DNA of 64,000 nt from Methylococcales bacterium. Lineage in GTDB: Bacteria > Pseudomonadota > Gammaproteobacteria > JABHGC01. The position numbers were made by a program, and so were the translations under genes. Location of the stretch: assembly GCA_018672285.1 (NCBI GenBank), contig JABHGC010000225.1:7153-71152 (forward strand). The letters are read 5' to 3'. The first letter of the stretch is position 1. Each line of letters begins with the position of its first letter. The notes under the pieces are model-generated. The model made no database searches. It worked only from the letters and a program-made list of their open reading frames with translations, and had not been told where the DNA came from. Shown here in pieces: positions 32,906 through 61,280 of the stretch.

Positions 32906-33181
32906 AATTATCCAGTAACTTATTAATTTTTAAAACATAGTTCCAATATATAAAATAGTCGAATATCTACATTGGGTGGGGGGACATACTTAGAAATTCG
33001 CCAAATTTAAACATAAGCAACTGTTTATTGGTCTTATTTTTATATCATTATGATACTGCTGACGCAGATAAAATACCATCGCAAAAACACATCAAAGTTG
33101 CCTATTTTCTATGTGTTTAGGTAGCAATTTCTCACAACGATGGCCATACTCTATAGTATTTGCGCCATAAAGTGACTTTGC
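32906..33181. promoter_or_regulatory. AT-rich divergent intergenic region between the NRPS start and the kinase-like gene; promoters not mapped
   Basis: 277-bp non-coding AT-rich spacer between divergently oriented start codons. It contains a short palindrome, atcattatgat, at about 33047-33057. Confidence 0.3.
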
Positions 33182-34153
33182 ATGACCACCGATAAAGAAA
33201 GATGCCAGAAAATCACCAGTATGCTTTCCACGCTAACCGAAAATAAGCAACGCAGTGAGGTGATTTTACAGAGCATTATCCAAGATTTATCTCAGGTCCA
33301 AATAACTGCTAACATCCACACTATGCAATTGGAAAAGCAAGTCCAATACCTGACTCGCGAGCTCACCAAAAGTAACCTCACCTTACAAAATAAAGTCATT
33401 GAACTTGAAGACACCCGTGACAGGGCCATCAAATCAAACAAAGCAAAAAGTGCCTTTATAGCAACCGTTAGCAGACAACTACGCATGCCACTGGATGCCA
33501 TTATCGGCTACAGCACACTACTACTCGAAGGCCAAGGAAACCCTGAAGAGTTGCACGACGATTTACAGCAAGTGAATGTTGGTGCAGGACAAATATTAGA
33601 TTTAATCAATGACATTCTTGAACTCTCTGAGCTTGAATCTGGCCAAAGAGAACTGTCCATTGATGACTTTGTGGTCGAAGATTTTGTCAACGAAATCGAA
33701 ACCACAAGCCGCAAGGTGACTGACACCAATAACAATAAACTGATTATGGAGGTCAAGGCGGAACTCGGTGTCATGTCGACAGATATGAAAAAATTACGCC
33801 AAGCTCTGCTACATTTAATCAAAGCAGTCTCAACCAGAAACCATGATCACGTCATCCATTTTTCCGTTGAAACTGAAATCAGACACAACCTTTCGTGGTA
33901 TATTTTTAAAGTATCGGACTCATCTGAGATGAAAATGCCCGGAGAGAATTTTGAACATTTATTTGACCCATTTATTGATGTACCGATGACCAATGCACAT
34001 ATCTTAGAAGGCTGCGGTCTTGGCATGGCCATTACCAAACATATATGCAATATTTTACATGGGCGCTGCGGCATAGTGCATGACCCTGATTATGGCCCGA
34101 CTTTTTCTATTGCAATCCCGGAAACCCACCAACTTATGAACATGAATATTTAG
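33182..34153 (+). CDS. Cytoplasmic histidine-kinase-like protein (HisKA-like + HATPase_c) lacking the phospho-acceptor histidine
   Basis: No transmembrane segment and a coiled-coil N-terminus. The H-box position reads ATVSRQLRMPLDAIIGY (agc aga caa cta cgc atg cca ctg) where SHELRTPL is expected. An intact ATP-lid/G-box region is present (...GCGLGMAI...). Confidence 0.75.
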   Translation: MTTDKERCQKITSMLSTLTENKQRSEVILQSIIQDLSQVQITANIHTMQLEKQVQYLTRELTKSNLTLQNKVIELEDTRDRAIKSNKAKSAFIATVSRQLRMPLDAIIGYSTLLLEGQGNPEELHDDLQQVNVGAGQILDLINDILELSELESGQRELSIDDFVVEDFVNEIETTSRKVTDTNNNKLIMEVKAELGVMSTDMKKLRQALLHLIKAVSTRNHDHVIHFSVETEIRHNLSWYIFKVSDSSEMKMPGENFEHLFDPFIDVPMTNAHILEGCGLGMAITKHICNILHGRCGIVHDPDYGPTFSIAIPETHQLMNMNI

Positions 34154-34171
34154 GCTAAAAGGTAGCAACAG

Positions 34172-34474
34172 ATGGCAAAAATTTTAGTGGTTGATGATGC
34201 CGAAATGATTCGCAAACTCATGTCCGCATTCTTTTCCAAACACGGCATTACTGTCACCACAGCAGTCGATGGCATGGACGGCTTTAACAAACTGAAAGCT
34301 GACCCTGAAATCAAATTGGTTTTTGCTGACGTCAACATGCCAGAATTAAATGGGCTAGCTATGGTTGAAAAAATTCGCAACGAACTTGAAACCGAAGCGG
34401 TTATTTTGATGCTCACCTCAGAAAACAGCAACGAAATGAAAGAACGAGGAAGAGCGCTTGGCGTCAAAGGCTGA
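34172..34474 (+). CDS. CheY-like receiver domain protein, ended by an in-frame TGA before the conserved KPF lysine. The reading frame continues to 34534.
   Basis: MAKILVVDDAEMIRKLMS...FADVNMPELNG...LMLTSE...GVKG then TGA at 34472-34474. The same frame continues as VVKPFNDPNVINLVKKIVA and ends at a TAA at 34532-34534. Confidence 0.7.
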   Translation: MAKILVVDDAEMIRKLMSAFFSKHGITVTTAVDGMDGFNKLKADPEIKLVFADVNMPELNGLAMVEKIRNELETEAVILMLTSENSNEMKERGRALGVKG

Positions 34475-34704
34475 GTCGTAAAACCCTTTAATGACCCCAA
34501 TGTCATTAATTTAGTGAAAAAAATTGTTGCATAAGCTGCAAACACAGCCTAAAAAAAAGCGGCACTCTCATGTTACCTCCCCGGCGCCACACCAAGTTTT
34601 AGCACGCCATGCACGCGCTTCAGCCAACATCAACAGCATTGCTTGATATACCCAGCTGTAGTAGTTTAAACCCATAAAAAAACGACATTGAGCACAACGC
34701 CGCC

Positions 34705-36717
34705 ATGCTAAAACTCCTTAAAAATCACTTAGGCTTATTTTTCAGCTTACTCACCTTACTCACCTTACAATGGTTTATGGTGCGAGAAAGCGGCGCAGGC
34801 ATGGCTTACGACCACTTACTTGCATTCGCCAACTTATCATTGAGCTATTGGCTGGTATTGCTGTTTTGGTTTATTTATCGTTTTTTTGCAATAAAACCTA
34901 GAGCCTGGTTTTTCCCTTTATTGATTCAAGCGACATTTACCGCCCTATTATACTCAAGCCAAGCGCTGTTTTTAAACCTTGATTCAATGCAGTACCTGCT
35001 TTTTTATGCCCTAACTTCCTTACCGTGGCTGCTCTGTGCAGCACTCATTGGCACAACCATCTCTCGCTTGTTTGTTTACCAAAGCATTCCCTTTAAAACG
35101 GTTATTTTCAGCGGCCTCATCATTTATTTTGTTGCCCCTATCCCGCAACCTAACAGCAACACTGACCCCAGCGCCACTGTGCCGCTCGGTGAGCTATCCG
35201 TCGATAACTACCAGTATGGGAGTGGCACGATACAGCGCCAAAGCCTGTATGAGACACCATACTGGAAAAGCAAAACAATAGACCTTGCCCAGTACATTGC
35301 ACCTCACCTCTCTAAAAACACAAAGGCCAGGGATCAATTTTGGCAGTTTGATTTAGCCCGGTTCCCACTCAATGCAGAGGTTTGGCTACCGAAAACCAGC
35401 CAACCGCAACCATTAGTTATCATCAGCCATGGTGATTTTTTCATGGAAAAATACTCCGAACATGGCTATGCCTACTTAGGCCAACACCTTGCCAGCTTAG
35501 GTTATGCAGTAGTATCTATTGATGCGAATGCACTGAACTGGAGTGCTGATGGTAATTACTGGAGACAAGAGGATCTTGCTCGAGCACAGCTTATTTTAGC
35601 GCATATCAAACAGATAAAAGCCTTCTCCGAACAAAGTGAACACCCTCTAGCCAATGTCGATCTTAACCAAATCGCTTTAATTGGCCATTCCCGTGGGGGA
35701 GACGCCATTATGCTAGCTGCAAAGCTCAACTTAGAAGGCCCTCAGTTTAATCTTAAGACATTAATTGGTTTAGCACCCGTTGACAGTATTGGCCTACCAA
35801 ACCATGAATCCCCAATCGCCTTAAACAACATCAACTACCTAGTGCTTCAAGGCGGGGTAGATACAGAACTGCCTTATTTCCAGGGACAAAATCATTATGA
35901 CAACGTCCATATAAGTGCTCCGGGGCTTCACAAACTGAGCATTTTCGCCACCAGGGCGGATCATAGCCAGTTTAATCAAGATTGGAGCGATGCGGCCAAA
36001 AAATCTTACCTTAGACCGCTCTATAATACCGCCAACACCATGCCGGACTATGAGCAGAGAAAGTGGGCAAAACTTGCCGTTACCCACTTCCTAAACCTGA
36101 CATTACGAGACAAATCTATTTGGCCTAAAATTTCTACCACCGCATTTTGGCAGCAACAGTTCGCTGCAGAAACATTCATTACCCAAAGAGCAGATTCGAG
36201 CCATGTCAAGCTCAATCGGTGGCCTAAAATCAAACCTAAAATCACCGATGCCAAAGCAAGAATTAGGCCGATCAGCCAACAAGGTATGCCTGAAATACAG
36301 CAGCAGGAAGCACTCAGCATCCACTGGAATGGTCAAGCAAAAGTCGACTTTTCCCTACCTTACAAATTAGACCTTCGCTACATGCAACTCAACTTAACCA
36401 CGCTATGCATCGCTCAAGCTCAAAATACCTCACTCACTGTGGTACTCATTGATAGCAGCGGCAAACAATCCAGCCAAGCCATTGACAACGCACTCTGCCG
36501 AGCATTACCGGCACAGCACTTTAATAGTCAATTGTTAAACGCTGCAATTCAAACCTTAGCCGAACCAAAACAACAGCAACACATCATCCCACTAGGCGCA
36601 TTCTTTAAAAACAGTGAAATTGCCCCTCTCAAAGTGACAAAAATACGCATTGAAGCGGATGCCAGCTTGCCGAGTGACCTAACCATTGTCTCAGCATCAC
36701 TTTCAGTTGAAGATTAA
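34705..36717 (+). CDS. Membrane-anchored alpha/beta-hydrolase (lipase/esterase-like, GHSRGG nucleophile elbow) with a C-terminal domain of unknown function
   Basis: The N-terminal roughly 150 aa contain several hydrophobic helices. A GxSxG elbow appears in ALIGHSRGGDAIMLAA. Overall resemblance is to PAF-acetylhydrolase/chlorophyllase-type hydrolases. Confidence 0.7.
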   Translation: MLKLLKNHLGLFFSLLTLLTLQWFMVRESGAGMAYDHLLAFANLSLSYWLVLLFWFIYRFFAIKPRAWFFPLLIQATFTALLYSSQALFLNLDSMQYLLFYALTSLPWLLCAALIGTTISRLFVYQSIPFKTVIFSGLIIYFVAPIPQPNSNTDPSATVPLGELSVDNYQYGSGTIQRQSLYETPYWKSKTIDLAQYIAPHLSKNTKARDQFWQFDLARFPLNAEVWLPKTSQPQPLVIISHGDFFMEKYSEHGYAYLGQHLASLGYAVVSIDANALNWSADGNYWRQEDLARAQLILAHIKQIKAFSEQSEHPLANVDLNQIALIGHSRGGDAIMLAAKLNLEGPQFNLKTLIGLAPVDSIGLPNHESPIALNNINYLVLQGGVDTELPYFQGQNHYDNVHISAPGLHKLSIFATRADHSQFNQDWSDAAKKSYLRPLYNTANTMPDYEQRKWAKLAVTHFLNLTLRDKSIWPKISTTAFWQQQFAAETFITQRADSSHVKLNRWPKIKPKITDAKARIRPISQQGMPEIQQQEALSIHWNGQAKVDFSLPYKLDLRYMQLNLTTLCIAQAQNTSLTVVLIDSSGKQSSQAIDNALCRALPAQHFNSQLLNAAIQTLAEPKQQQHIIPLGAFFKNSEIAPLKVTKIRIEADASLPSDLTIVSASLSVED

Positions 36718-36725
36718 ATAGCGGC

Positions 36726-37466
36726 TTATAACACAGACACAACTGAGGTTTTCCAGCAGCACACATTCGCATCATTCATTTGGCGCTCATATGCTAATGC
36801 GGCTTTAAACCCCAACGACCCCATATCAATAGAAGCCATTCCCCAACGCTGCGTCTCCTCAGGGAACTCAGCATCATTCAGCAATGCAGCGTCTACACCC
36901 ACTGACACATCAAAACTTTCCAACCCTCTCATCAACCCATCACCATGTGCTTTTACATAAGCCTCTTTACGCGTCCAACAGCGAAAAAAGGCATTTTTCT
37001 GATCATCAGGATCGCACGATAGTATCGCTGCATGCTCTTGTTTTGAAAAAAATCGTTGAGACAAACTAGACCATTCCACCCGCCTATCTTGCTGCTCTAA
37101 ATCCACCCCTAACCGCCTATCTAACGAAAAAGCAAACAAAGCTTGCCCATGTGAGTGAGACACATTAAATTGCAGCGCATTATTCACAAGAGCAGGTTTA
37201 CCCTGGCTTAAATATGAAAACTCAACAGATTTCGCAGGCATCGCTAAATAGTGACCAAGCAAACTACGCAACACGCCTCTGGCTACGGCAAAATGCATTT
37301 GATCTTGACGCCGGTAAAAGCGTTTAGCCCTAGTCAGCTCAGTCTCGTTTAGCACCTGTAAAAATCGTGACTCAAGCGCCAAATCTACCTCTAACCCCAA
37401 TGACCAAACATGAACCTCATCATCAGCAAGTGTTACAGGAAGTGTCGGTTGTAACCAGTGGGTCAT
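36726..37466 (-). CDS. 4'-phosphopantetheinyl transferase, Sfp/EntD type
   Basis: Signature motifs FNVSHSHG, GVDLE and WTRKEAYVKAHG, about 246 aa. Convergent with the hydrolase gene and about 3.8 kb from the NRPS start. Confidence 0.8.
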   Translation of the reverse strand: MTHWLQPTLPVTLADDEVHVWSLGLEVDLALESRFLQVLNETELTRAKRFYRRQDQMHFAVARGVLRSLLGHYLAMPAKSVEFSYLSQGKPALVNNALQFNVSHSHGQALFAFSLDRRLGVDLEQQDRRVEWSSLSQRFFSKQEHAAILSCDPDDQKNAFFRCWTRKEAYVKAHGDGLMRGLESFDVSVGVDAALLNDAEFPEETQRWGMASIDMGSLGFKAALAYERQMNDANVCCWKTSVVSVL

Positions 37467-47692: not shown

Positions 47693-47779
47693 TTTTATTG
47701 ACCCAATCCTATTCGAGCGTGACTGTACTATAATTTAGGTATTCATTAATTCTCTTTTGCCTACAGGCTTTGCATTAAT

Positions 47780-50700
47780 ATGCCCATCAAACAAAATGTT
47801 GGCTCCATTGACTCTATCATCCGTAAAGTGCTCGGTATTGGTGCCATATACTATGGTTTTATCTCTCCACAACTCGTTGGAGACCCTTTGTTTGCCAATT
47901 TATTGGGATTTCTTGGTGTCATCGTCATCATCAGCAGTTTATTTCGCTACTGCCCCTTATACGTGTTAGGAGAGTTTAAAAAAATATTCAACGCTAAAAG
48001 CAAAAAAACCGCCAAAGATCCTTCCCTCAGAACCACAAAAAAATATTTTTTTATTACCTTCTCTTTATTAACCGTCACCACCATCATCATTTTTGGCCTA
48101 GTGGCCTATCATAGCGCCGTTGAGATAAGCCAGGAAAGAGAAAATAGTTATACCAATACCCTCTTCAAAACCCATTCTGATTTTTTAGTCAGTAACGCCA
48201 ATGTTGACGATGTCCAATCATTACAAGATGTTGCTGCGAGTTTAAAAGGCTTTTTAGGACAGATTTTTGCCATCGAAAATGGCTATTTAATTCACCCTCT
48301 ATCCATTGGCAGCGGCATGATTATGTCCACTGCAGACATTCAGAGGCTCTCCATTCTCACCAGCAACGCAGGCACCCTCGATTTACCAGAACACCGCAGA
48401 CACTGGCAAAAAATTCCGCTACCCAATAGCCGTTATACCTTATTTGTCACTTACGACATGCCGCTGTATGAAACACAGTTGCTCGATGCATTTAACAGTA
48501 GATTGTTTGTTGCCAGTACCATTTTATTTTATTTTTACGTCTGGGGCACACTCATTGGAACCAGGTATATTTCCAAGAAATTTGACCTGATCAACTCAGC
48601 TCGCATGGAAAGTGAGGCACTGAACACGTTACTGCTTAACTCAACGGCAGAAGCGATTTATGGTGTCGATACCGATGGAAATTGCACTTTCTGTAACCCC
48701 GCGACGTTACAGCTGTTGGGTTATTCGGATGTAGACGACTTGTTAGGTAAAAATGTGCATAATTTAATGCACCATAGTCACCCAGATGGTTCAGAATATC
48801 CCATTGAAGACTGCCCAATGAACCGGGTTTTAAAACAAGGCCTCCCTGTACACGAAGATAATGAGGTTTTTTGGCGCGCCGACAACACCTGCTTCCCAGT
48901 TGAATACTGGGGCCACCCCATTGTACAAAATGACCAAGCACAAGGCATGGTCATGACCTTCTTAGACATTACCAAGCGTAAAGTCGCAGAAGCTGAAAGG
49001 CTAAAACTGTCCAGTGTTGTTGAGCAGTCTAAGGACCTCATTGTATTAACAGACAATCATGCCGTTATCAGCTATACCAATCCTGCATTTAGCGATATTA
49101 CCGGGTTTAGTTATGAAGATGCACTCGGTAAAGAAATTTCAATTCTCAACCAAGCACTGACTGAAAATGATGAACACGAACAAATTTTCGACACCCTAAA
49201 ACAAGGTGATATTTATCAAGACTCGTTTGTTAATTACCGAAAAAATGGTGATGCATATTATTTAGATTTATCTGTATATGGCCTTAAAAATCAACAAGGT
49301 GAGCTTGAATCTATTGTATATACTGGCCGTGATGTCACCGAGAAAATTGACACCGAAGAGACGATTCGCCAATCTGAGAGCGATAAAATAGAAGCTGAAG
49401 CTGCCAATCAATCGAAAAGCATCTTCTTAGCCAATATGAGCCATGAAATTCGCACACCAATGACTGCGATCATTGGCTTTGCCGAATCCTTGTTAGATGA
49501 TGATATTACCGAAATAGAACGAAGAGATGCCGTTAAAACGATTATTCGTGGTGGTCAACACTTAACCAGGATTATCAATGATATTTTAGATCTTTCTAAG
49601 ATAGAAGCTAACCGAGTTGATATTGAATCAATCCCGATAGACCTCTTAGAACTATTGGCTGAAATCAACAAGATTGCCAATATTCAAGTCAACAACAAGC
49701 ACATTGACTTTATTGATGAATACCAATTTCCACTACCAAGAATCATTCACTCAGACCCAACTCGGTTAAAACAAATTTTATTAAATTTAGTCACAAACGC
49801 GGTTAAATTTACCGATAGCGGTCATGTTGAGCTAACCCTGTCACATGACCCGCAAGAGCAATTAATTTTCTTTAAAATAAAAGATACCGGCATTGGGCTT
49901 AGCGACGAACAGCAACGTAAGTTATTCAACCCTTTCTCACAAGCAGAAAGCTCAACAACGAGACGTTACGGTGGCACCGGTTTAGGGCTGCATATTTCCA
50001 AACAACTCTCCGAACGAATGGGCGGCTCAATCACCGTTGAAAGCCAATTAAATGTTGGCAGTACATTTACCTTAAGCATTGCCAGTGGTTTGAAGAGCAC
50101 TCTTGCAGAAGACGAATTAATTACGACCCGCGAACAAGTCATTAAGACGGCGCATGAACATGACCACGTTTATGAGGATGCAACCCACGGTGCCAAGATA
50201 TTAATTTCAGAAGACAGTAAAGTCTCTCAAGCATTATTAAAACGGCTTTTCAAAGACAGCAATATTGAAATTGAAATCGTCGACAATGGAGAGCGAGCGT
50301 TAGAGCGCGCATTCGAGACAGAGTTTGACTTAGTCTTAACAGACATTCATATGCCGATCATGGATGGCTTAGAAGCCACTCAAAAAATGCGCGACAGAGG
50401 GTTTAAAAAACCCATTATTGCCATCACTGCCAACGTCATGAAAAATGACATCACCAATTATTACAGTGCAGGCTGTGATGCCGTTATTTCCAAACCCATC
50501 GAGAAAGACAATTTCTTTACGGTTATCAATAAATATTTAACTGACAAACAATATAAACCGAAGGCTACCACCACGGAGATTCCACAGCTGAGCGGCGAAA
50601 TATTAGTGGCAGAGGACAACCCAGATAATCAACGCCTCATTACGATGGTCATCAATAAAACAGGGGCAAACTTAAGTATCGCTGAGGATGGCTTATCAGC

Positions 50701-51295
50701 CATCGAACATACCTTAAGCAAGGATTACCACATCATTTTAATGGACATCAACATGCCATTAATGAATGGGCTTGAGGCGACTAAGAAGCTACGCAAAGCC
50801 GGTTATACCCTACCCATCTACGCTCTCACAGCTGATACAGATAAAGACAAGGTCACCGCGTTTGAAGAGGCAGGTTATGATGGTTATTTATCCAAGCCTT
50901 TAGACAACAGACAACTCTACAGCGTTCTAGAAAAATATTTACCCTGCAACAGTAAACCTGAAAAATTACCGACATATACCGAAGGGAAATCGGCAGAAAT
51001 GGCTTACGAGGAAGTCGATGAGGAAATTTTGTCGTTGATGATCTTGTTTGCGGAAAGATTACCCCCAATGATTGAACAAATTGACACTGCCATTAAAGAG
51101 CAAGACTGGGAAACAGCAGGCGCCGTCATTCACAATATTAAAGGGACTGCAGGTAGCTTTGGACACCCTAAATTAACACTGTTAGCTGGCGTGCTATCCA
51201 ACATCATCAAGAATGCCGATTATGATGATGCCCCTATTGCTTTTGCCGATGTCGTTGAATACGCCAAAAACCACGTTACGACGACCCCAAGTTAA
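47780..51295 (+). CDS. Hybrid sensor histidine kinase: DUF2892-like membrane N-terminus, PAS domains, HisKA, HATPase_c, two receiver domains and an Hpt domain
   Basis: N-terminus ...LFRYCPLYVLGEF (YgaP/DUF2892-like). H-box ANMSHEIRTPMTAIIGF. Receiver 1 ...DLVLTDIHMPIMDGLEA and receiver 2 ...HIILMDINMPLMNGLEA. Hpt HNIKGTAGSFG. Confidence 0.8.
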   Translation: MPIKQNVGSIDSIIRKVLGIGAIYYGFISPQLVGDPLFANLLGFLGVIVIISSLFRYCPLYVLGEFKKIFNAKSKKTAKDPSLRTTKKYFFITFSLLTVTTIIIFGLVAYHSAVEISQERENSYTNTLFKTHSDFLVSNANVDDVQSLQDVAASLKGFLGQIFAIENGYLIHPLSIGSGMIMSTADIQRLSILTSNAGTLDLPEHRRHWQKIPLPNSRYTLFVTYDMPLYETQLLDAFNSRLFVASTILFYFYVWGTLIGTRYISKKFDLINSARMESEALNTLLLNSTAEAIYGVDTDGNCTFCNPATLQLLGYSDVDDLLGKNVHNLMHHSHPDGSEYPIEDCPMNRVLKQGLPVHEDNEVFWRADNTCFPVEYWGHPIVQNDQAQGMVMTFLDITKRKVAEAERLKLSSVVEQSKDLIVLTDNHAVISYTNPAFSDITGFSYEDALGKEISILNQALTENDEHEQIFDTLKQGDIYQDSFVNYRKNGDAYYLDLSVYGLKNQQGELESIVYTGRDVTEKIDTEETIRQSESDKIEAEAANQSKSIFLANMSHEIRTPMTAIIGFAESLLDDDITEIERRDAVKTIIRGGQHLTRIINDILDLSKIEANRVDIESIPIDLLELLAEINKIANIQVNNKHIDFIDEYQFPLPRIIHSDPTRLKQILLNLVTNAVKFTDSGHVELTLSHDPQEQLIFFKIKDTGIGLSDEQQRKLFNPFSQAESSTTRRYGGTGLGLHISKQLSERMGGSITVESQLNVGSTFTLSIASGLKSTLAEDELITTREQVIKTAHEHDHVYEDATHGAKILISEDSKVSQALLKRLFKDSNIEIEIVDNGERALERAFETEFDLVLTDIHMPIMDGLEATQKMRDRGFKKPIIAITANVMKNDITNYYSAGCDAVISKPIEKDNFFTVINKYLTDKQYKPKATTTEIPQLSGEILVAEDNPDNQRLITMVINKTGANLSIAEDGLSAIEHTLSKDYHIILMDINMPLMNGLEATKKLRKAGYTLPIYALTADTDKDKVTAFEEAGYDGYLSKPLDNRQLYSVLEKYLPCNSKPEKLPTYTEGKSAEMAYEEVDEEILSLMILFAERLPPMIEQIDTAIKEQDWETAGAVIHNIKGTAGSFGHPKLTLLAGVLSNIIKNADYDDAPIAFADVVEYAKNHVTTTPS

Positions 51296-52780: not shown

Positions 52781-53006
52781 AAATGTCTAAGAAATGATCC
52801 ATCAATTCAATTTCTTTGTCTTCTGACGCTTGATAACTGGTTGTTTGATCTTCAGGCATAAAGCAGGTAATCAACCAGCTTTGCACGATCTCTTCATCCT
52901 CAAAGCCAACTTCCATGTTGATGTGTGTTTTCAACCAACCTTCTGGCGCTGTATCCGCAACCCAGTAAACTAGCTCTTGGTAAATCACTTCCATTGTTTC
53001 ACTCAT
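52689..53006 (-). CDS. Small acidic hypothetical protein, translationally coupled to the upstream kinase gene
   Basis: 105-aa ORF whose ATG overlaps the stop codon of the Ser/Thr kinase gene by 1 nt (TAATG). Confidence 0.45.
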   Translation of the reverse strand: MSETMEVIYQELVYWVADTAPEGWLKTHINMEVGFEDEEIVQSWLITCFMPEDQTTSYQASEDKEIELMDHFLDIYEYHAKREEGWSICDFTVTKNGEYEVGYNT

Positions 53007-55174
53007 TAGATATTCAATCCTTGTAAATCTGCTTGAAGTTCTTGTATTCCTTGGTATCGATCTTGAGGCTTTTTAGCCATTGCCCGCTGCACAATCAAAT
53101 CAATTTCCATGGGCATTTCAGGATATTTTTCACATATTTTAGGCACTGGGTCTTTAAGGTGAGACTGCAGTAATTCCCTTAAATCAATCGACTTAAAGGG
53201 GGTCGTTCCTGCAAAAATCCGATAAAACACAGCCCCCAACTGATAAATATCTGTTCGCTCATCAATTCCTTGGCGCATAATTTGTTCTGGCGCCATATAG
53301 TAAGGTGTACCAATAATTTTCTTGGTTTCTTGCTCATTATCAACTTGTAACGCCAAACCAAAATCCATCACTTTTAAGATGCCTTGGGATGAAATCATCA
53401 TATTCCTAGGGTTAATATCTCGATGAACGATCCCTTGCTCATGTGCAGAAGCAATGGCTGCAGACATCTGTCTGGCTAAAATCACTCCCAAACGAATGTT
53501 ATCAATTCGCCCACCGGAGCGCTGCAACAAGGTGTGCAAGTCATACCCATGTATATATTCCATAGAAATATAAATTTGGTTATTCACGACGCCATAGTCG
53601 TATGTTCTTAACACATTCCTTGCCGTAATCATTCTGGCCAGCTTAATTTCATGCTTAAGCAACGCTTGCTGATTATCATCAACTTGAAACAATACTTTCA
53701 AAGCGACGGTTTCATCTAGACCGGTGTCATGTGCCAAATACACCATTCCCATTCCGCCCGCACCAAGCTCTTTTATAATATTGAAGCGACCCTCAGCAAA
53801 GGGTTGCCCAATCGTGACTTGGTCTGGCTCTACAGCACTTGCTTTTGCAGACAATGGCTGTGATAAATCCTGGGTGACAAAATGACTAGAATCTTCAGAC
53901 TCCACATCGATAACCAAACTACGGTTTAAGCTATCATCACCACTGTAGTTTGTAATTTCAGTGGCAAATTCTTTCGATAAATTTCTTGAGTACTCATCCT
54001 CAAGCAGGCCCTCCGAGATTTTAGCCAGATAATCTTGCAGATCCTCATTATCACGTAATTTTTCACCCAGTAAATAGATTGAATCTGTTAAAACACAGAT
54101 TTCATCTTTACAGGATGTAGATAACTCCGATTCTGCGATTGAATCAATTTGCTTAAAATCCCCCTCTTTGATTCTTGAGGTGAGCTCAATAAGGTGGTTC
54201 ACAGGTTTGGTAATTTGACCTGAGAAAATCCATGCAAAAATACTCGCTAAAATAAGACTAATGAGGCCAATAATAAGAATTTTGTCTTTAATTGTATCAA
54301 ACGGTTTCATAAAGTCGGATTTAGACTTCATCGCCAACACATACCCAAGCGTACTACCACCACTGCGCTCGAGTGGGTAAACAGCAATATGGTATTGTAA
54401 GCCATTTAACTGTAACCGGCTCATACTGCCTTCTTTCAAATTCTGTTTGATACGTGTAAAAATATCACCTTCTTTAGAAATTAATGCTTCAGCAAGGCCA
54501 ATATCGGTCATAAATTGTAGTTTAGGTTTTACCGTACCATCCACTTTTGCCATTGCATAAATTGCGATATCACTGGTGGTCAGTTTTTTAATTCTTGCGG
54601 CCATATCTGAGGAAACCTGAAATGCTACTGCAATAGCACCTCTGATAATATCCCCTGCATTAACGTCTAAATCATAAACAGGTAAAGAGACAATTTGAAA
54701 TATCTTACCTCGAGAAACCATGAAGCCTCTCGCTTCCTTTCCCGTTAATGCCGTGTCTATTAAATGATGACTTCCTTTAATTCTTGAACCGATCAATGAT
54801 TTTTTATCTGTTCTAGACAAAACATAGCCATCTGCATTGACAAACAATAAAATATCAAGCTCTGATGACTCTTTGAGCTCATTAGATAAATCCAACAAAG
54901 AGTCTTTATCTTGCTCAATGACTAAAGGCGTCACTCTTTGGTCCTCAGCAATGGTTTTAGCAATGTTGGATATGCGCTCAAACCGGTTCAACCAGCTTTC
55001 TTCTAGTACCGCCTCAGTTTGTGTTAATGCAAGGTTAATCTCTGAATTCGCGACATCTTCAGCTTGCTCTCCAACTAGCAAAATCAATGCAGCCAATAAA
55101 AACCCAAAACTCAGAGATAGAATTAAAAAAAGCTTTCTCTTGATCGAGACTTGATTAAAAATCTTCAAAGTCAT
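53006..55174 (-). CDS. Transmembrane receptor Ser/Thr protein kinase: periplasmic sensor domain, HAMP, Hanks-type kinase
   Basis: TM1 LFLILSLSFGFLLAALILLV. A periplasmic region of about 250 aa. TM2 ILIIGLISLILASIFAWIFSG. A HAMP-like linker. Kinase motifs GAGGMGMVY, VALKVL, HRDINPRN, MDFGLA and MAPEQ. Confidence 0.8.
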   Translation of the reverse strand: MTLKIFNQVSIKRKLFLILSLSFGFLLAALILLVGEQAEDVANSEINLALTQTEAVLEESWLNRFERISNIAKTIAEDQRVTPLVIEQDKDSLLDLSNELKESSELDILLFVNADGYVLSRTDKKSLIGSRIKGSHHLIDTALTGKEARGFMVSRGKIFQIVSLPVYDLDVNAGDIIRGAIAVAFQVSSDMAARIKKLTTSDIAIYAMAKVDGTVKPKLQFMTDIGLAEALISKEGDIFTRIKQNLKEGSMSRLQLNGLQYHIAVYPLERSGGSTLGYVLAMKSKSDFMKPFDTIKDKILIIGLISLILASIFAWIFSGQITKPVNHLIELTSRIKEGDFKQIDSIAESELSTSCKDEICVLTDSIYLLGEKLRDNEDLQDYLAKISEGLLEDEYSRNLSKEFATEITNYSGDDSLNRSLVIDVESEDSSHFVTQDLSQPLSAKASAVEPDQVTIGQPFAEGRFNIIKELGAGGMGMVYLAHDTGLDETVALKVLFQVDDNQQALLKHEIKLARMITARNVLRTYDYGVVNNQIYISMEYIHGYDLHTLLQRSGGRIDNIRLGVILARQMSAAIASAHEQGIVHRDINPRNMMISSQGILKVMDFGLALQVDNEQETKKIIGTPYYMAPEQIMRQGIDERTDIYQLGAVFYRIFAGTTPFKSIDLRELLQSHLKDPVPKICEKYPEMPMEIDLIVQRAMAKKPQDRYQGIQELQADLQGLNI

Positions 55175-56036
55175 CTTCTTTCTTCACTGCTGGCTGGTTG
55201 TTTTTTTCGACATCAGAACTATCGTCAAATTCTTCGTCCTCGTCGTCTTCTTCTTCATCTTCTTCGTCATCAAAATCGTCAATCATGTCATAGTCATCTT
55301 GCTCATCATCTTCATCAATTTGGTTCTGTATTTTTGACCAATCTTCAGACTTTAAGCTTTTTTGTGGTGCAGCAGGATAAACACCACTTTTTTTCGGCCG
55401 AGTCCGCTTTGTCCATTGAGTACCATCAACCGAAAGGTCAATGACCAAGTTCGAATTTTTGATCAATACTGTTCTCGTGGTCTGACCTCGCACATGCCAC
55501 GCAGTTAAAGTGTACCGGCCAGGTGCTAAATCACTAATATGATAAAAGCCGTCTTTATTGGTGATCATGGAGCGTTCTTTGGCCATAACCCACACATAGG
55601 TAAACATTTTCTTGTGCACGTTACAGTAGATTTTAACCAAACCGGGATTCTTGAAAGCAACCTCGGGGCTCATGCCACGACGAAAACTGCCAAGATCAAA
55701 ACGATTACCTTCAGATGAACTAAAAACATTGTGCTTGATACGATCTTGATTCGGGAAATAGACAGAGTCACCAACCTGTACCACTAGATGTGACGGGGTA
55801 TAGGTCTTATTACGCATTTTAATTTTAAAGGTTTTTGCCGCACGCGCATTCAAATCGATGCTGCTATCTAATGGCTTTAAAGTCACGATAACGTGCTTAG
55901 GGCTAGTCGGTACTTGCCCCTTTCCGAGTACTGTCACCTTACCCTGGACAGAACCTGTCGTAACGGGCTCAGCAGCGGTCGCATGCCCTGTTATAAAGAA
56001 CAAGAGAAAGCAAAAAAACAGCAAGGAATAGTTCAT
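55155..56036 (-). CDS. Secreted cupredoxin-like (type-1 copper) protein with a poly-acidic C-terminal tail
   Basis: Signal peptide MNYSLLFFCFLLFFITGHATA. HNVF and YCNVHKKMF motifs (His...Cys-x2-His-x2-Met) typical of plastocyanin/azurin-type sites. Asp/Glu-rich tail DEDDEQDDYDMIDDFDDEEDEEEDDEDEEFDD. Overlaps the kinase start by 20 nt. Confidence 0.5.
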   Translation of the reverse strand: MNYSLLFFCFLLFFITGHATAAEPVTTGSVQGKVTVLGKGQVPTSPKHVIVTLKPLDSSIDLNARAAKTFKIKMRNKTYTPSHLVVQVGDSVYFPNQDRIKHNVFSSSEGNRFDLGSFRRGMSPEVAFKNPGLVKIYCNVHKKMFTYVWVMAKERSMITNKDGFYHISDLAPGRYTLTAWHVRGQTTRTVLIKNSNLVIDLSVDGTQWTKRTRPKKSGVYPAAPQKSLKSEDWSKIQNQIDEDDEQDDYDMIDDFDDEEDEEEDDEDEEFDDSSDVEKNNQPAVKKEDDFEDF

Positions 56037-57810: not shown

Positions 57811-58968
57811 CTAGATCTTGTTCACATCAGGATCTAGCGGTAAGGTAAAATAAAACTGACTACCAACCCCAACCGTACTTTCCACACCCACTTCCCCACC
57901 ATGTGCATCAATAATTTTTTTGACGATGGCCAAACCTAAACCCGTACTTGACTCACCACCGGTGGACTGTGTTCCCGCTGTTTGAAATGAATCAAATAAT
58001 GTTTTTTGAGCAGGTTCATCAATCCCAGGTCCCTCATCAACAACGGCCACTTTAGCAAAGCCATTAGCATGACTAATTGCCACTTTAATTTTCGCATTTT
58101 TGGGGCTGAACTTAATGCTATTACTAATTAGGTTATCAATCACCTGACCGACTCGCAAACGGTCAAAAACAAAGGGGGCATTCGATTGCCCCTCCATTAA
58201 TAGAGAGATATGCTTTTGATCGGCTCTGAAGCGATGGTGTTTGATTTTTTCTAACACCAGCATTTCTAAATCTGCTTCATTTTTAGATAGTTTTAAAGTC
58301 CCGTTTTCAATGGCTGACATGTCAACAAGGTCATTGATTAACAGTAATGCTTCATTGGCCACATTAAAAATTTTATTGTGAATCCCCTCCAACTCATCAG
58401 CTTCATACTGAGCATCCAGCAATAGCTCCATATAACCTTTAATCACACCTACGGGGTTGCGTAAGTCATGAGCGACCATGCCTAACAGCTTGTTTTTATC
58501 CTCATTGAGCCTAGCTTGTTCCTGTAACGCATACCTTAGCTGTAAATGGGTTTGAATCCTAATTCTAACTTCACGCTCATTAAAGGGCTTAGTCATATAA
58601 TCTTTGGCGCCAGCATCAAACCCTTTTATGACATCATCGATATCAGACATTGCGGTTAAAAATATAATGGCAACGTCTTTAAATTCAGGTTTTTGCTTCA
58701 GTATTCGACAAACCTCAAAGCCATCAATACCGGGCATCATGATGTCTAATAAGATTAAATCAGGCTTGAAATGCTCTGCAACTTTTATCGCTCGCTCACC
58801 ACTTTGTGCCAGCGCTAGCTGATACCCATCAGGCCTCAGCGCCTCTGTTAACACTCTGATGTTTTCAGCAACATCATCGACCAGTAAAATTTTAAGACCC
58901 GCTGGATTATAAGGTAGATTAGACATCAGATATTTTACCAATGATGTCAATAATCCCATCCATATCAT
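57811..58968 (-). CDS. Response-regulator receiver fused to a histidine kinase (REC-HisKA-HATPase_c). The start is probably the internal Met at about 58926.
   Basis: REC ...ILLVDDVAENIRVL...LILLDIMMPGIDGFEV. H-box MVAHDLRNPVGVIKGY. G-box ...GLGLAIVKKII. Confidence 0.75.
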   Translation of the reverse strand: MIWMGLLTSLVKYLMSNLPYNPAGLKILLVDDVAENIRVLTEALRPDGYQLALAQSGERAIKVAEHFKPDLILLDIMMPGIDGFEVCRILKQKPEFKDVAIIFLTAMSDIDDVIKGFDAGAKDYMTKPFNEREVRIRIQTHLQLRYALQEQARLNEDKNKLLGMVAHDLRNPVGVIKGYMELLLDAQYEADELEGIHNKIFNVANEALLLINDLVDMSAIENGTLKLSKNEADLEMLVLEKIKHHRFRADQKHISLLMEGQSNAPFVFDRLRVGQVIDNLISNSIKFSPKNAKIKVAISHANGFAKVAVVDEGPGIDEPAQKTLFDSFQTAGTQSTGGESSTGLGLAIVKKIIDAHGGEVGVESTVGVGSQFYFTLPLDPDVNKI

Positions 58969-61150
58969 AAGATTTAGCCATGGCAGCCAAATGATCGGCT
59001 AAACCCTGACCACCGTCAAGTTCTGATATTTGCTTAATCACAACATCTAAATCAGTAATCATACAGAATTCTGCCGCCTCATTGATGGCCATCTTAATCG
59101 CAGGGTCTAAGACAATGGTTGACGTGTCAAAACCATTGATACTCGTGACCGGCACGTCACCCAGCAAATCGTCTTCATATTCATACTCAATTTCAAGTAA
59201 CTTTTGCATACTACTGAAGACTTGCTGTGATTTAAACGGCTTGGTAATAATACCATTACACGCTGAGTCGTAAAATTTTTCTCTGTCATGATCAAACGCT
59301 GTGGCAGAGACAATGACCATTTTTATTTTATCACCATAAATATCTCTAATTTGATTCATGGCCTCAATGCCATCCATTTTAGGCATTCGGTAATCCATAA
59401 AAATAATATCGGGTGGTGATTTTTTTGCTTTTTCAATCGCAACCAACCCATTTTCAGCCTCAGTGACGTTCACCCCAATTTTACGTAAAATCAAACTTAA
59501 TAGATCTCTATTCACCTCAACATCATCAACAACTAAGGCATTCACAGAGAATTCGGGCAATAGCTTAACGACCACCTTAAGGTCGTCTTCTTGAATATTA
59601 ATGACCTTATTTTCTGCTTTCGGGAGAGTTATTTCAAAATAAAATTTTGAACCGACACTCAGTCGCGATTCAATTTGTAAACTCCCACCCATCATATCAA
59701 CTTGCTTACTAGAAATGGCTAGCCCTAACCCTGTCCCGCCTTTTTTCACACCTTGATCGCTCTGTTGAAAAGCTTTAAATATTGAATCTTGATGCGACTC
59801 AGCAATGCCCTCACCGGTATCACAGACTTCAAATCGATACCGATCTGTTTTTGCTTGGCGAAAGATATTCAAGGTAATGGCTCCTGAATCCGTAAATTTA
59901 ACGGCGTTACCTAGCAGGTTAATCAACACCTGCCGCACTTTACCTTCGTCACCATACACGTGAATATCATCTACCGAAAAATTATCATTCACAGACCAAG
60001 CCAGCTTTTTCTCTTGGCAGCGCAAGCGGAACATCTCATCCACGTCATGCGTTAACGCTTTCAAATCAAAATCGGCAGAATTCAGCTTTTGTTTACCCGC
60101 TTCAATCTTAGAGATATCTAAAATATCATTGATTAACTGTAATAAATGCTGACCACTACGCTCAATTGTATTGATCGATTCTCGCTGCTCTTTTTCTAGT
60201 GCATGGTCACGTTTTAATATCTGTGCATAACCCAGAATGGCATTCATCGGTGTACGAATCTCATGACTCATATTGGCCAAAAACACTGATTTTGACTGGT
60301 TAGCCATTTCCGCATCTTGTTTGGCAATTAAAAGTGCCTGCTCTGCACTTTTTCTTTCAGAAATTTCATTCCGCATTTGAGAGTTGAGCGCCATCAGCTG
60401 GGATTGGCTTTCTTCTAATTTATCCATTTTAGCGCGTGCTAATTCCTCTGCATCCGTGACAGCGGCTTTTAACTTTTCTTGTTGCTTAGCAACATTATCA
60501 ACCATCTCATTAAAAAACTGAGCCAAATCTCCAAACTCATCCGGACGCGACGCATCAAAGCGGTAGTCTAAGTGCCCATTAGCCACTTGCCTCGTACCAT
60601 CAACTAATGCTTCAAAAGGCTTAGTCACCACCTTATTCATGGTCCAACTTAAAACCAACCCAAATACCAAGCAGACGGCCACCATTGACCATAACCAGCG
60701 TTTTTGTTGCTGCCGAAAGGATTTTCCAACAGGAGGATGGCACAGCTCAATCAAGACAAATTGTATATCCTGCTCTATTCCTGAAGTTGTCACCCGCCGG
60801 GAAACACACACATCTTTTTTGCCTAAATTCCCCCAACTTTGTTTATTTCCTTCATAAATCAGGTGAACAGACGTAAATTGCTTTGTGGTTAATTGCTGCA
60901 AGAATTCAAAAGCAATTGGCGCATCAACCGCTTGCTGTTCTCTGGAAAACTCAGACCATTGATAGGCTATTCGATCAGCATCACTTTCAACCCCGGTTAA
61001 TAACTCTTTCTCACCGTCCCACAACAAAACAGCAGAAATCACCAAACCAATAATCGCGATCCCCCACAGCACCACTGAGGTAATTTTTATCGGAAGCCTA
61101 GCATTCCAGTTCGTTGTCCAGTCGGAGGTTAAAGACTTGTCAATTTCCAT
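58919..61150 (-). CDS. Membrane hybrid sensor histidine kinase (TM, HAMP, coiled coil, HisKA, HATPase_c, receiver)
   Basis: H-box ANMSHEIRTPMNAILGYAQIL. Receiver ALVVDDVEVNRDLL...DIIFMDYRMPKMDGIEA. Confidence 0.8.
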   Translation of the reverse strand: MEIDKSLTSDWTTNWNARLPIKITSVVLWGIAIIGLVISAVLLWDGEKELLTGVESDADRIAYQWSEFSREQQAVDAPIAFEFLQQLTTKQFTSVHLIYEGNKQSWGNLGKKDVCVSRRVTTSGIEQDIQFVLIELCHPPVGKSFRQQQKRWLWSMVAVCLVFGLVLSWTMNKVVTKPFEALVDGTRQVANGHLDYRFDASRPDEFGDLAQFFNEMVDNVAKQQEKLKAAVTDAEELARAKMDKLEESQSQLMALNSQMRNEISERKSAEQALLIAKQDAEMANQSKSVFLANMSHEIRTPMNAILGYAQILKRDHALEKEQRESINTIERSGQHLLQLINDILDISKIEAGKQKLNSADFDLKALTHDVDEMFRLRCQEKKLAWSVNDNFSVDDIHVYGDEGKVRQVLINLLGNAVKFTDSGAITLNIFRQAKTDRYRFEVCDTGEGIAESHQDSIFKAFQQSDQGVKKGGTGLGLAISSKQVDMMGGSLQIESRLSVGSKFYFEITLPKAENKVINIQEDDLKVVVKLLPEFSVNALVVDDVEVNRDLLSLILRKIGVNVTEAENGLVAIEKAKKSPPDIIFMDYRMPKMDGIEAMNQIRDIYGDKIKMVIVSATAFDHDREKFYDSACNGIITKPFKSQQVFSSMQKLLEIEYEYEDDLLGDVPVTSINGFDTSTIVLDPAIKMAINEAAEFCMITDLDVVIKQISELDGGQGLADHLAAMAKSYDMDGIIDIIGKISDV

Positions 61151-61280
61151 AACGCATTATCTTGGTAAGACCCTCATAACATGATTGCGGTTAGATACCG
61201 GTTTTAGGATGTCCTATTCAGTATAGTTGAATGTAACCAATTAACACGTTTTGCAAATTGACATACGAACGCACTACTGC

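Follow-up and report, generated by a model that had tools for sequence, protein, structure and literature searches.

A CheY-like single-domain receiver gene, located in a 64,000-nucleotide stretch of DNA from an uncultured, marine-type Methylococcales bacterium (the whole stretch analysed, hereafter the window), was found to be interrupted by an in-frame TGA at codon 101 of 120. Of the three explanations offered by the initial annotation of this stretch (nonsense mutation, sequencing or assembly error, and stop-codon readthrough), the first proved the best supported, since the TGA is real, is fixed in the sampled copies and occupies what was a TGG codon. We consider it very probable that the TGA is a genuine fixed TGG>TGA nonsense mutation, and that the gene is an ordinary young pseudogene or a strong hypomorph.

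An in-frame TGA lies within a CheY-like receiver gene

The receiver ORF (34172-34534, + strand) opens with an ATG followed by 99 more codons, the TGA and 19 further codons, and closes with a TAA at 34532-34534; the features of this region are listed in Table 1. When the TGA is read through, the product continues as ...RALGVKG-x-VVKPFNDPNVINLVKKIVA, and the peptide ALGVKGWVVKPFNDPNVINLVK belongs to this full-length receiver. The read-through sequence, the codon number of the TGA and the position of the TAA are all as the initial annotation had claimed, and its placing of the TGA inside a continuous CheY-like receiver holds as well, since homology to the Pfam family Response_reg (PF00072) runs through the stop.

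Table 1 Features of the interrupted receiver gene and its surroundings (positions are those of the window)
Feature	Position	Strand	Evidence
323-aa histidine-kinase-like protein (coiled coil, HisKA, HATPase_c)	33182..34153	+	Pfam; PDB match; orthologue alignment
Lineage-specific segment (receiver and 670-aa hydrolase)	34154..36725	.	Gene order; tblastx synteny; repeat search
Putative Shine-Dalgarno-like site, AAAGGT, some 9 nt before the receiver ATG	34158..34163	+	Direct sequence reading (inferred site)
Receiver codons 1-100, beta1 to alpha4	34172..34471	+	PF00072 alone 64.9 bits; CheY alignment; model
TGA in place of the ancestral TGG (Trp101)	34472..34474	+	Direct reading; homologue DNA; CheY mapping
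19 codons and TAA: rest of beta5, Lys104-Pro-Phe, alpha5	34475..34534	+	PF00072 +13.3 bits; model; homologue identity
670-aa protein: N-terminal hydrophobic segments and chlorophyllase/PETase-like alpha/beta-hydrolase domain	34705..36717	+	Pfam

Against PF00072, the 100-aa product scored 64.9 bits (profile positions 1-94 of 111) and the read-through sequence scored 78.2 bits (positions 1-110 of 111), both above the cut-off of 30.2, so that 13.3 bits fall past the TGA. Given that 19 open codons after a TGA are expected about 0.4 of the time by chance, it is this homology, and not the bare openness of the frame, that establishes the continuation as real. The tail is open, carries no indels, ends at the normal position of the family and retains both K-P-F and an amphipathic alpha5 pattern, and it would be translated only with readthrough of the TGA. 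A six-frame scan for TGAs with a long open frame upstream found no real gene in the 64-kb window, apart from the receiver, that contains an internal TGA. An antisense ORF (34150-34545) had no family match and was taken as a chance frame, and a scan for promoters and terminators gave nothing above shuffled expectation.

The interrupted codon was TGG

The nearest real homologues of the receiver (P0002-P0005) are proteins of 121 aa with 55-58% identity, which read G-[VI]-K-G-W-I-V-K-P-F across the interrupted position. The codon at position 101 is TGG in all five homologue loci whose DNA was read (L003-L007). Trp was found in 18 of the 19 retrieved single-domain matches that reach position 101 and Phe in the remaining one, with Cys in none, and none of the 19 family matches retrieved by HMMER stops at this position. 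This is the orthologue comparison that the initial annotation had called for, and it bears out the guess of TGG made there. Since Trp has one codon, the change is TGG>TGA, a single G>A transition; judged from the homologues, the ancestral codon is TGG at the aromatic switch position.

An exhaustive HMMER search of 1.84 billion representatives returned no relative closer than about 57-63% identity, and no relative was found between about 63% and 99.9% identity in a word-indexed set of 5.8 billion proteins, the 1.84 billion HMMER representatives and a GTDB scan. A scan of the GTDB representative genomes with a neighbouring gene did not find the species itself.

The best PDB match of the receiver is the CheY4-type protein of V. 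cholerae (4h60/4hnr; E=7e-21, residues 1-118), likewise a 120-residue (beta-alpha)5 receiver. It reads GATGWLVKPFN at the corresponding site, giving a common motif G-x-x-G-W-[LIV]-V-K-P-F-N. With E. coli CheY the receiver shares the acidic pocket, phospho-Asp, Thr and Lys at the positions of D12/D13, D57, T87 and K109. It differs from both proteins in that its aromatic switch codon is a stop, and in that its gene is flanked by a His-less kinase-like gene and a hydrolase gene, outside any chemotaxis or flagellar cluster. The metagenomic homologues with 55-58% identity sit in flagellar and chemotaxis clusters (flhA-flhF-flhG-fliA-motAB-cheA-MCP), as at the L003 locus. No che or fla gene is present in the 64-kb window, so the partners of a functional chemotaxis CheY are missing there.

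In the flagellar and chemotaxis clusters, the gene before the intact homologue invariably encodes a conserved, unrelated protein of about 327 aa without a Pfam domain (...NLIWGAFKSRY...), and it follows cheA and an MCP gene (L003, 8396-9945; upstream genes in L004-L006). This is an uncharacterised chemotaxis-cluster protein.

The stop removes the switch aromatic, beta5, the conserved Lys and alpha5

In an explicit alignment with E. coli CheY, codon 101 corresponds to Tyr106, the aromatic switch residue, and Lys104 corresponds to Lys109, Asp53 to Asp57, Asp8/Asp9 to Asp12/Asp13 and Thr81 to Thr87. The acidic pocket (D8/D9), the phospho-acceptor D53 and T81 are all intact upstream of the stop, and D9 and D53 are invariant in the subfamily alignment. 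An AlphaFold2 model of the read-through receiver (mean pLDDT 91) adopts the (beta-alpha)5 fold; its beta5 spans residues 100-103 and its alpha5 residues 109-119, so the product as written stops at the first residue of beta5. The stop thus costs the receiver its switch aromatic, beta5, Lys104 and alpha5, and both the model and the CheY alignment agree with the earlier claim that the product lacks the beta5/alpha5 segment and the conserved Lys; that the interrupted codon is the switch aromatic had gone unremarked there.

The uninterrupted (beta-alpha)5 ORF of a PF00072 receiver is broken here at codon 101. The sequence is therefore a member of the receiver family by descent and not an intact member, and the 1-100 fragment is expected to be misfolded or dead in signalling.

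The adjacent kinase-like protein is likely a pseudokinase

The receiver gene starts 19 nt past the stop of the kinase-like gene, which is an operon-like layout. The best PDB match of the kinase-like protein is the pseudokinase DivL (E=2.5e-21). Its phospho-acceptor position is occupied by Arg (VSRQLRMPL, compared with ISHELRTPL in HK853 and VSYELRTPL in DivL), and of the marks of a histidine kinase it lacks the H-box His, the Asn of the N box and the DxGxG of the G1 box. Its only close homologues, P0029 and P0030 (52-53% identical; L023-L027), also have Arg, and on alignment the three appear to form a conserved His-less (pseudokinase) clade. In P0029 and P0030 the N, G1 and G2 boxes are kept (KNAAKFT, DTGIGI); the window's copy reads KAVSTRN at the N box and DSSEMKM at G1, so that the N-box Asn/Lys and G1 have been lost in this lineage only. 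Given these sequence features, the product of this gene is likely a pseudokinase. Lacking both the His and an intact ATP site, it would not be expected to pass phosphate to the receiver by the canonical route anyway.

DivL-type pseudokinases act by binding single-domain receivers. The window's protein resembles DivL of Caulobacter and RetS-type kinases in its HisKA and HATPase_c domains, in the replacement of the phospho-acceptor His (by Tyr in DivL and by Arg in the window) and in that its gene adjoins a single-domain receiver gene. It differs from them in having no PAS or sensor domains, in carrying Arg and not Tyr, and in its degenerate ATP-binding boxes; moreover, in the sister lineages the kinase-like protein is an orphan with no adjacent receiver.

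In the syntenic locus of the sister lineage (L023/L024, the P0030 locus), neither the receiver nor the hydrolase separates the kinase-like gene from the PPTase gene. The order there is kinase-like, PPTase, SQS_PSY, YciK-like reductase, a 197-aa gene and NIF3, with the kinase-like gene abutting the PPTase gene, and a tblastx comparison of L023/L024 with the window gave synteny on both flanks and none inside 34154-36725. Neither flanking repeats nor signs of mobile elements were found around this 2.6-kb segment beyond chance, and its GC content is unremarkable. Judged by gene order, the receiver is a lineage-specific addition. The initial annotation had called it the response regulator of the cluster, which is doubtful on two grounds: the sister lineage has neither receiver nor hydrolase at its syntenic locus, and the neighbouring kinase lacks the phospho-acceptor His and retains only a degenerate ATP site, so that no working two-component pair would be evident even without the stop.

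Several other genes of the window were recorded. One uninterrupted frame, at least 10,976 codons long, fills the minus strand at 1-32929 and continues past the left end of the window; its product is 13,010 aa long on a JGI contig of the same organism, and the first 4,000 residues contain four Condensation, four AMP-binding and three PP-binding domains, which points to a giant multi-module NRPS in a Methylococcales MAG. The PPTase gene near the NRPS lies at 36726-37466 (- strand), and L023 has an AmiC-like gene on the NRPS side instead. A dCache_3-linked Ser/Thr protein kinase is encoded at 53006-55183 (- strand). Two intact hybrid histidine kinases are also present (47750-51295, + strand; 58919-61156, - strand), one of them with a YgaP-like TM domain, PAS domains, two receivers and an Hpt domain, which suggests that two-component signalling in general is intact in this organism.

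Possible readthrough of the UGA

UGA is the leakiest stop codon, at which Trp-tRNA(Trp) competes with RF2. Since the lost residue is Trp, any readthrough with Trp would recreate the ancestral protein, and the downstream frame is intact and homologous. The reading that follows, a functional leaky stop at which low-level Trp decoding gives a small, condition-dependent dose of full-length receiver, possibly beside the truncated form, is the foremost rival of the pseudogene reading and in our view unlikely. Published rates leave room for it: UGA readthrough by Trp-tRNA(Trp) in E. coli K-12 is about 2% at 37 C and about 4% at 25 C (PMC10570021), varying with temperature and growth state, and about 12% in another E. 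coli reporter (PMC9481147), and tRNA-Trp variants with 4-bp anticodon stems as well as suppressor tRNAs occur in some standard-code bacteria (PMC13092985). The rate is only 0.08% in P. putida and 0.04% in P. aeruginosa (PMC9481147), so that the published values span 0.04%-12% between species. The case in the window resembles that of E. coli in being a UGA in a standard-code gammaproteobacterium where the inserted residue would be Trp, and differs in that nothing in the window shows elevated or selected readthrough. TGA is also a scarce terminator among the likely genes of the window (3 of 26), which is compatible with a leaky stop.

The stop context is GGC-UGA-G. Programmed readthrough would be expected to keep the stop in diverged orthologues, and all diverged homologues have TGG; the TGA was seen only within a population at least 99.92% identical. 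The only structure 3' of the UGA is an AT-rich 8-bp hairpin, UUAAUGAC-CCCAAU-GUCAUUAA, about 14 nt away. In the DNA it is a perfect inverted repeat, TTAATGAC CCCAAT GTCATTAA (34488-34509, + strand), within the F-N-D-P-N-V-I-N codons. Its fold did not differ significantly from shuffled sequences (z = -1.87), the loop contains no G, and the hairpin is absent from the homologues and is not SECIS-like. No Rfam family matched in the window at gathering thresholds. A functional leaky stop is further opposed by the kinase-like neighbour, which could not donate phosphate by the canonical route, and by the dispensability of the gene in the sister lineage. Of the readthrough proposed earlier, generic leakiness therefore stands as a possibility, and a programmed form has neither a significant structure nor an Rfam element in its favour.

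A more elaborate version, which we regard as quite improbable, would have the UGA kept as a leaky gate whose rate is set by growth state or temperature, possibly via an unusual tRNA-Trp or a weak RF2 in a genome with few TGA terminators. The tunable wild-type receiver, made in small amounts, would then partner the His-less pseudokinase in a circuit of the DivL/DivK type that needs no phosphotransfer and is encoded next to the gene of the 13,010-residue NRPS.

A possible function for the truncated receiver

The 100-residue receiver might itself be functional, for example as a phosphate sink or as a binding partner of the adjacent pseudokinase. The intact D8/D9, D53 and T81, the operon-like layout with the kinase-like gene and the DivL-type mode of action suggested by the best PDB match of the neighbour all speak for such a role. 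The fragment has lost an edge strand, the invariant Lys and the helix that packs on the sheet, which would make a stable fold unlikely; no other family member among the top matches stops there, and the downstream codons are still receiver-like and not drifted non-coding DNA. Taken together, we hold a functional truncation to be highly improbable.

Genetic code and selenocysteine

Recoding of the UGA, either by an alternative code (TGA=Trp or Gly) or as selenocysteine, would agree with the Trp of the homologues at position 101 if TGA=Trp, but can hardly be credited. An alternative code (table 4 or 25) was rejected on account of the frame of at least 10,976 codons (33 kb) that contains no TGA, the three genes that end at TGA and the lack of any other TGA-split gene. 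The 26 likely genes of the window use TAA 17 times, TAG 6 times and TGA 3 times, and the three genes ended by TGA have complete domains and just 1-18 open codons past the stop. In the window, TGA is thus a terminator and is not widespread within genes, as it would be under an alternative code. No tRNA gene is present in the window. At about 44% GC, a gammaproteobacterium would not usually favour TAG over TGA, although the number of genes sampled is small.

Selenocysteine at the UGA is very unlikely: no SECIS-like element and no Rfam match were found, the AT-rich stem and G-less loop of the only hairpin form no significant fold, and the homologues have Trp and in no case Cys.

The TGA is present in every sampled copy

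The same TGA was found in every one of 13 other contigs read at the DNA level (L001, L002 and L008-L017 included), which come from ENA, Logan, NCBI and JGI assemblies, were made with different assemblers and represent at least five projects. Ten of these loci (L008-L017) are 99.92-100% identical to the window over 32930-36717, all with the TGA. Among the copies of this 3.8-kb region (L001, L002, L008-L016) there are three SNP sites in total. Two are nonsynonymous changes in the kinase-like gene, at 33928 (E>D) and 33988 (M>I), and the third is at 35926; none lies inside the receiver gene. The 100-aa truncated protein (P0013) is recorded on at least 26 contigs (NCBI, JGI, Logan, ENA), and is annotated as "response regulator [Methylococcales bacterium]" in two NCBI MAGs (MBT5231607.1 and MBT7444870.1). 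The TGA allele is fixed in the sampled copies, and the population is near-clonal and widely sampled. The TGA consequently predates the common ancestor of the sampled copies and is not a strain-level polymorphism.

A protein search returned one entry with an apparently intact position 101, P0001, which has 120 aa, is 99% identical to the query and carries Trp there. Both ENA contigs that encode it, L001 (ERZ27246003 k141_56625) and L002 (ERZ27237611 k141_28952), match the window exactly and carry the TGA. We therefore rejected P0001 as an intact Trp101 protein and regard it as an artefact of gene calling with a TGA=Trp table (table 4 style). L001 and L002 are both short contigs, and P0001 is the representative of its 90% cluster. 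A second entry, P0015, a 225-aa "double receiver" with the same stop, was rejected as the product of a chimeric contig. In this contig (L017; ERZ27250242 k141_864314, 1-1178), 787 bp of low-GC foreign DNA with another receiver is fused to the window's receiver, and the junction is the AAAATTTTAGTGGTTGATGATGC (KILVVDD) stretch common to both.

The suggestion that the TGA is a sequencing or assembly error and the true codon TGG has the Trp of P0001 on its side, yet it is effectively refuted by the TGA in the DNA of both P0001 contigs, by the TGA in eleven further contigs of various assemblers and projects, and by the 100-aa call on at least 26 contigs including two NCBI MAGs.

Age of the lesion and selection on the tail

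Within the tail, 6-9 of the 19 post-TGA residues are identical to those of homologues. Among intact homologues the ratio of identity in the last 19 residues to that in the first 100 is 0.66-0.88; between the window and the intact homologues it is 0.53-0.76, a slight excess of divergence that is not significant (n=19). This slightly lower ratio, although not significant, would fit early decay. The intact tail fits a young lesion and equally fits continued selection on a read-through product. Fixation is uninformative on selection either way because the population is near-clonal. The searches gave no intermediate relatives and the gene shows no polymorphism, which leaves nothing to date the mutation by or to gauge selection on the tail. 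The description of the mutation as recent, made in the initial annotation, is not supported: the allele does not segregate but is fixed in every copy examined, and there is no close relative to date it by.

Discussion

The most probable account of these observations begins with a G>A transition in the codon for Trp101. The gene, an orphan confined to this lineage, encodes a CheY4-like single-domain receiver. RF2 would terminate at the UGA and release a 100-residue fragment with the phospho-acceptor pocket but without the switch aromatic, beta5, Lys and alpha5. A small fraction of ribosomes probably reads the UGA with near-cognate Trp-tRNA(Trp), which would yield the exact ancestral protein; such readthrough would reflect generic UGA leakiness and not a programmed device. 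Loss of the receiver was probably tolerated, since the module appears to have been no phosphorelay already, its kinase-like member having neither His nor ATP-binding motifs.

Some observations count against a pseudogene. The start codon, the putative Shine-Dalgarno-like site and the upstream catalytic residues are intact, the UGA replaces a Trp codon, and only at such a codon does natural readthrough put back the wild-type residue, and TGA is rare as a terminator in the window. The gene resembles bacterial pseudogenes that arise by a single nonsense change (TGG>TGA): one transition has hit an amino acid with a single codon, the ORF is otherwise intact, as are the homologues, and the gene is dispensable in the sister lineage. 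It differs from them in that the allele is fixed in all copies of a widely sampled near-clonal population and is not strain-specific, and in that natural suppression of this UGA would bring back the wild-type residue.

For those who use the public records, the 100-aa "response regulator" carries no pseudogene flag, and an orthologue check made at the protein level would, owing to P0001, wrongly suggest a sequencing error in the window. A literature search for the sample accessions found nothing.

As a nonsense mutation, the lesion is of small biological significance, one more accessory signalling gene lost by point mutation. Only with substantial readthrough would the gene offer a natural example, and an interesting one, of a leaky UGA that controls dose. 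The His-less kinase-like protein, which is kept in sister lineages, may represent a true family of pseudokinases and would merit a study of its own.
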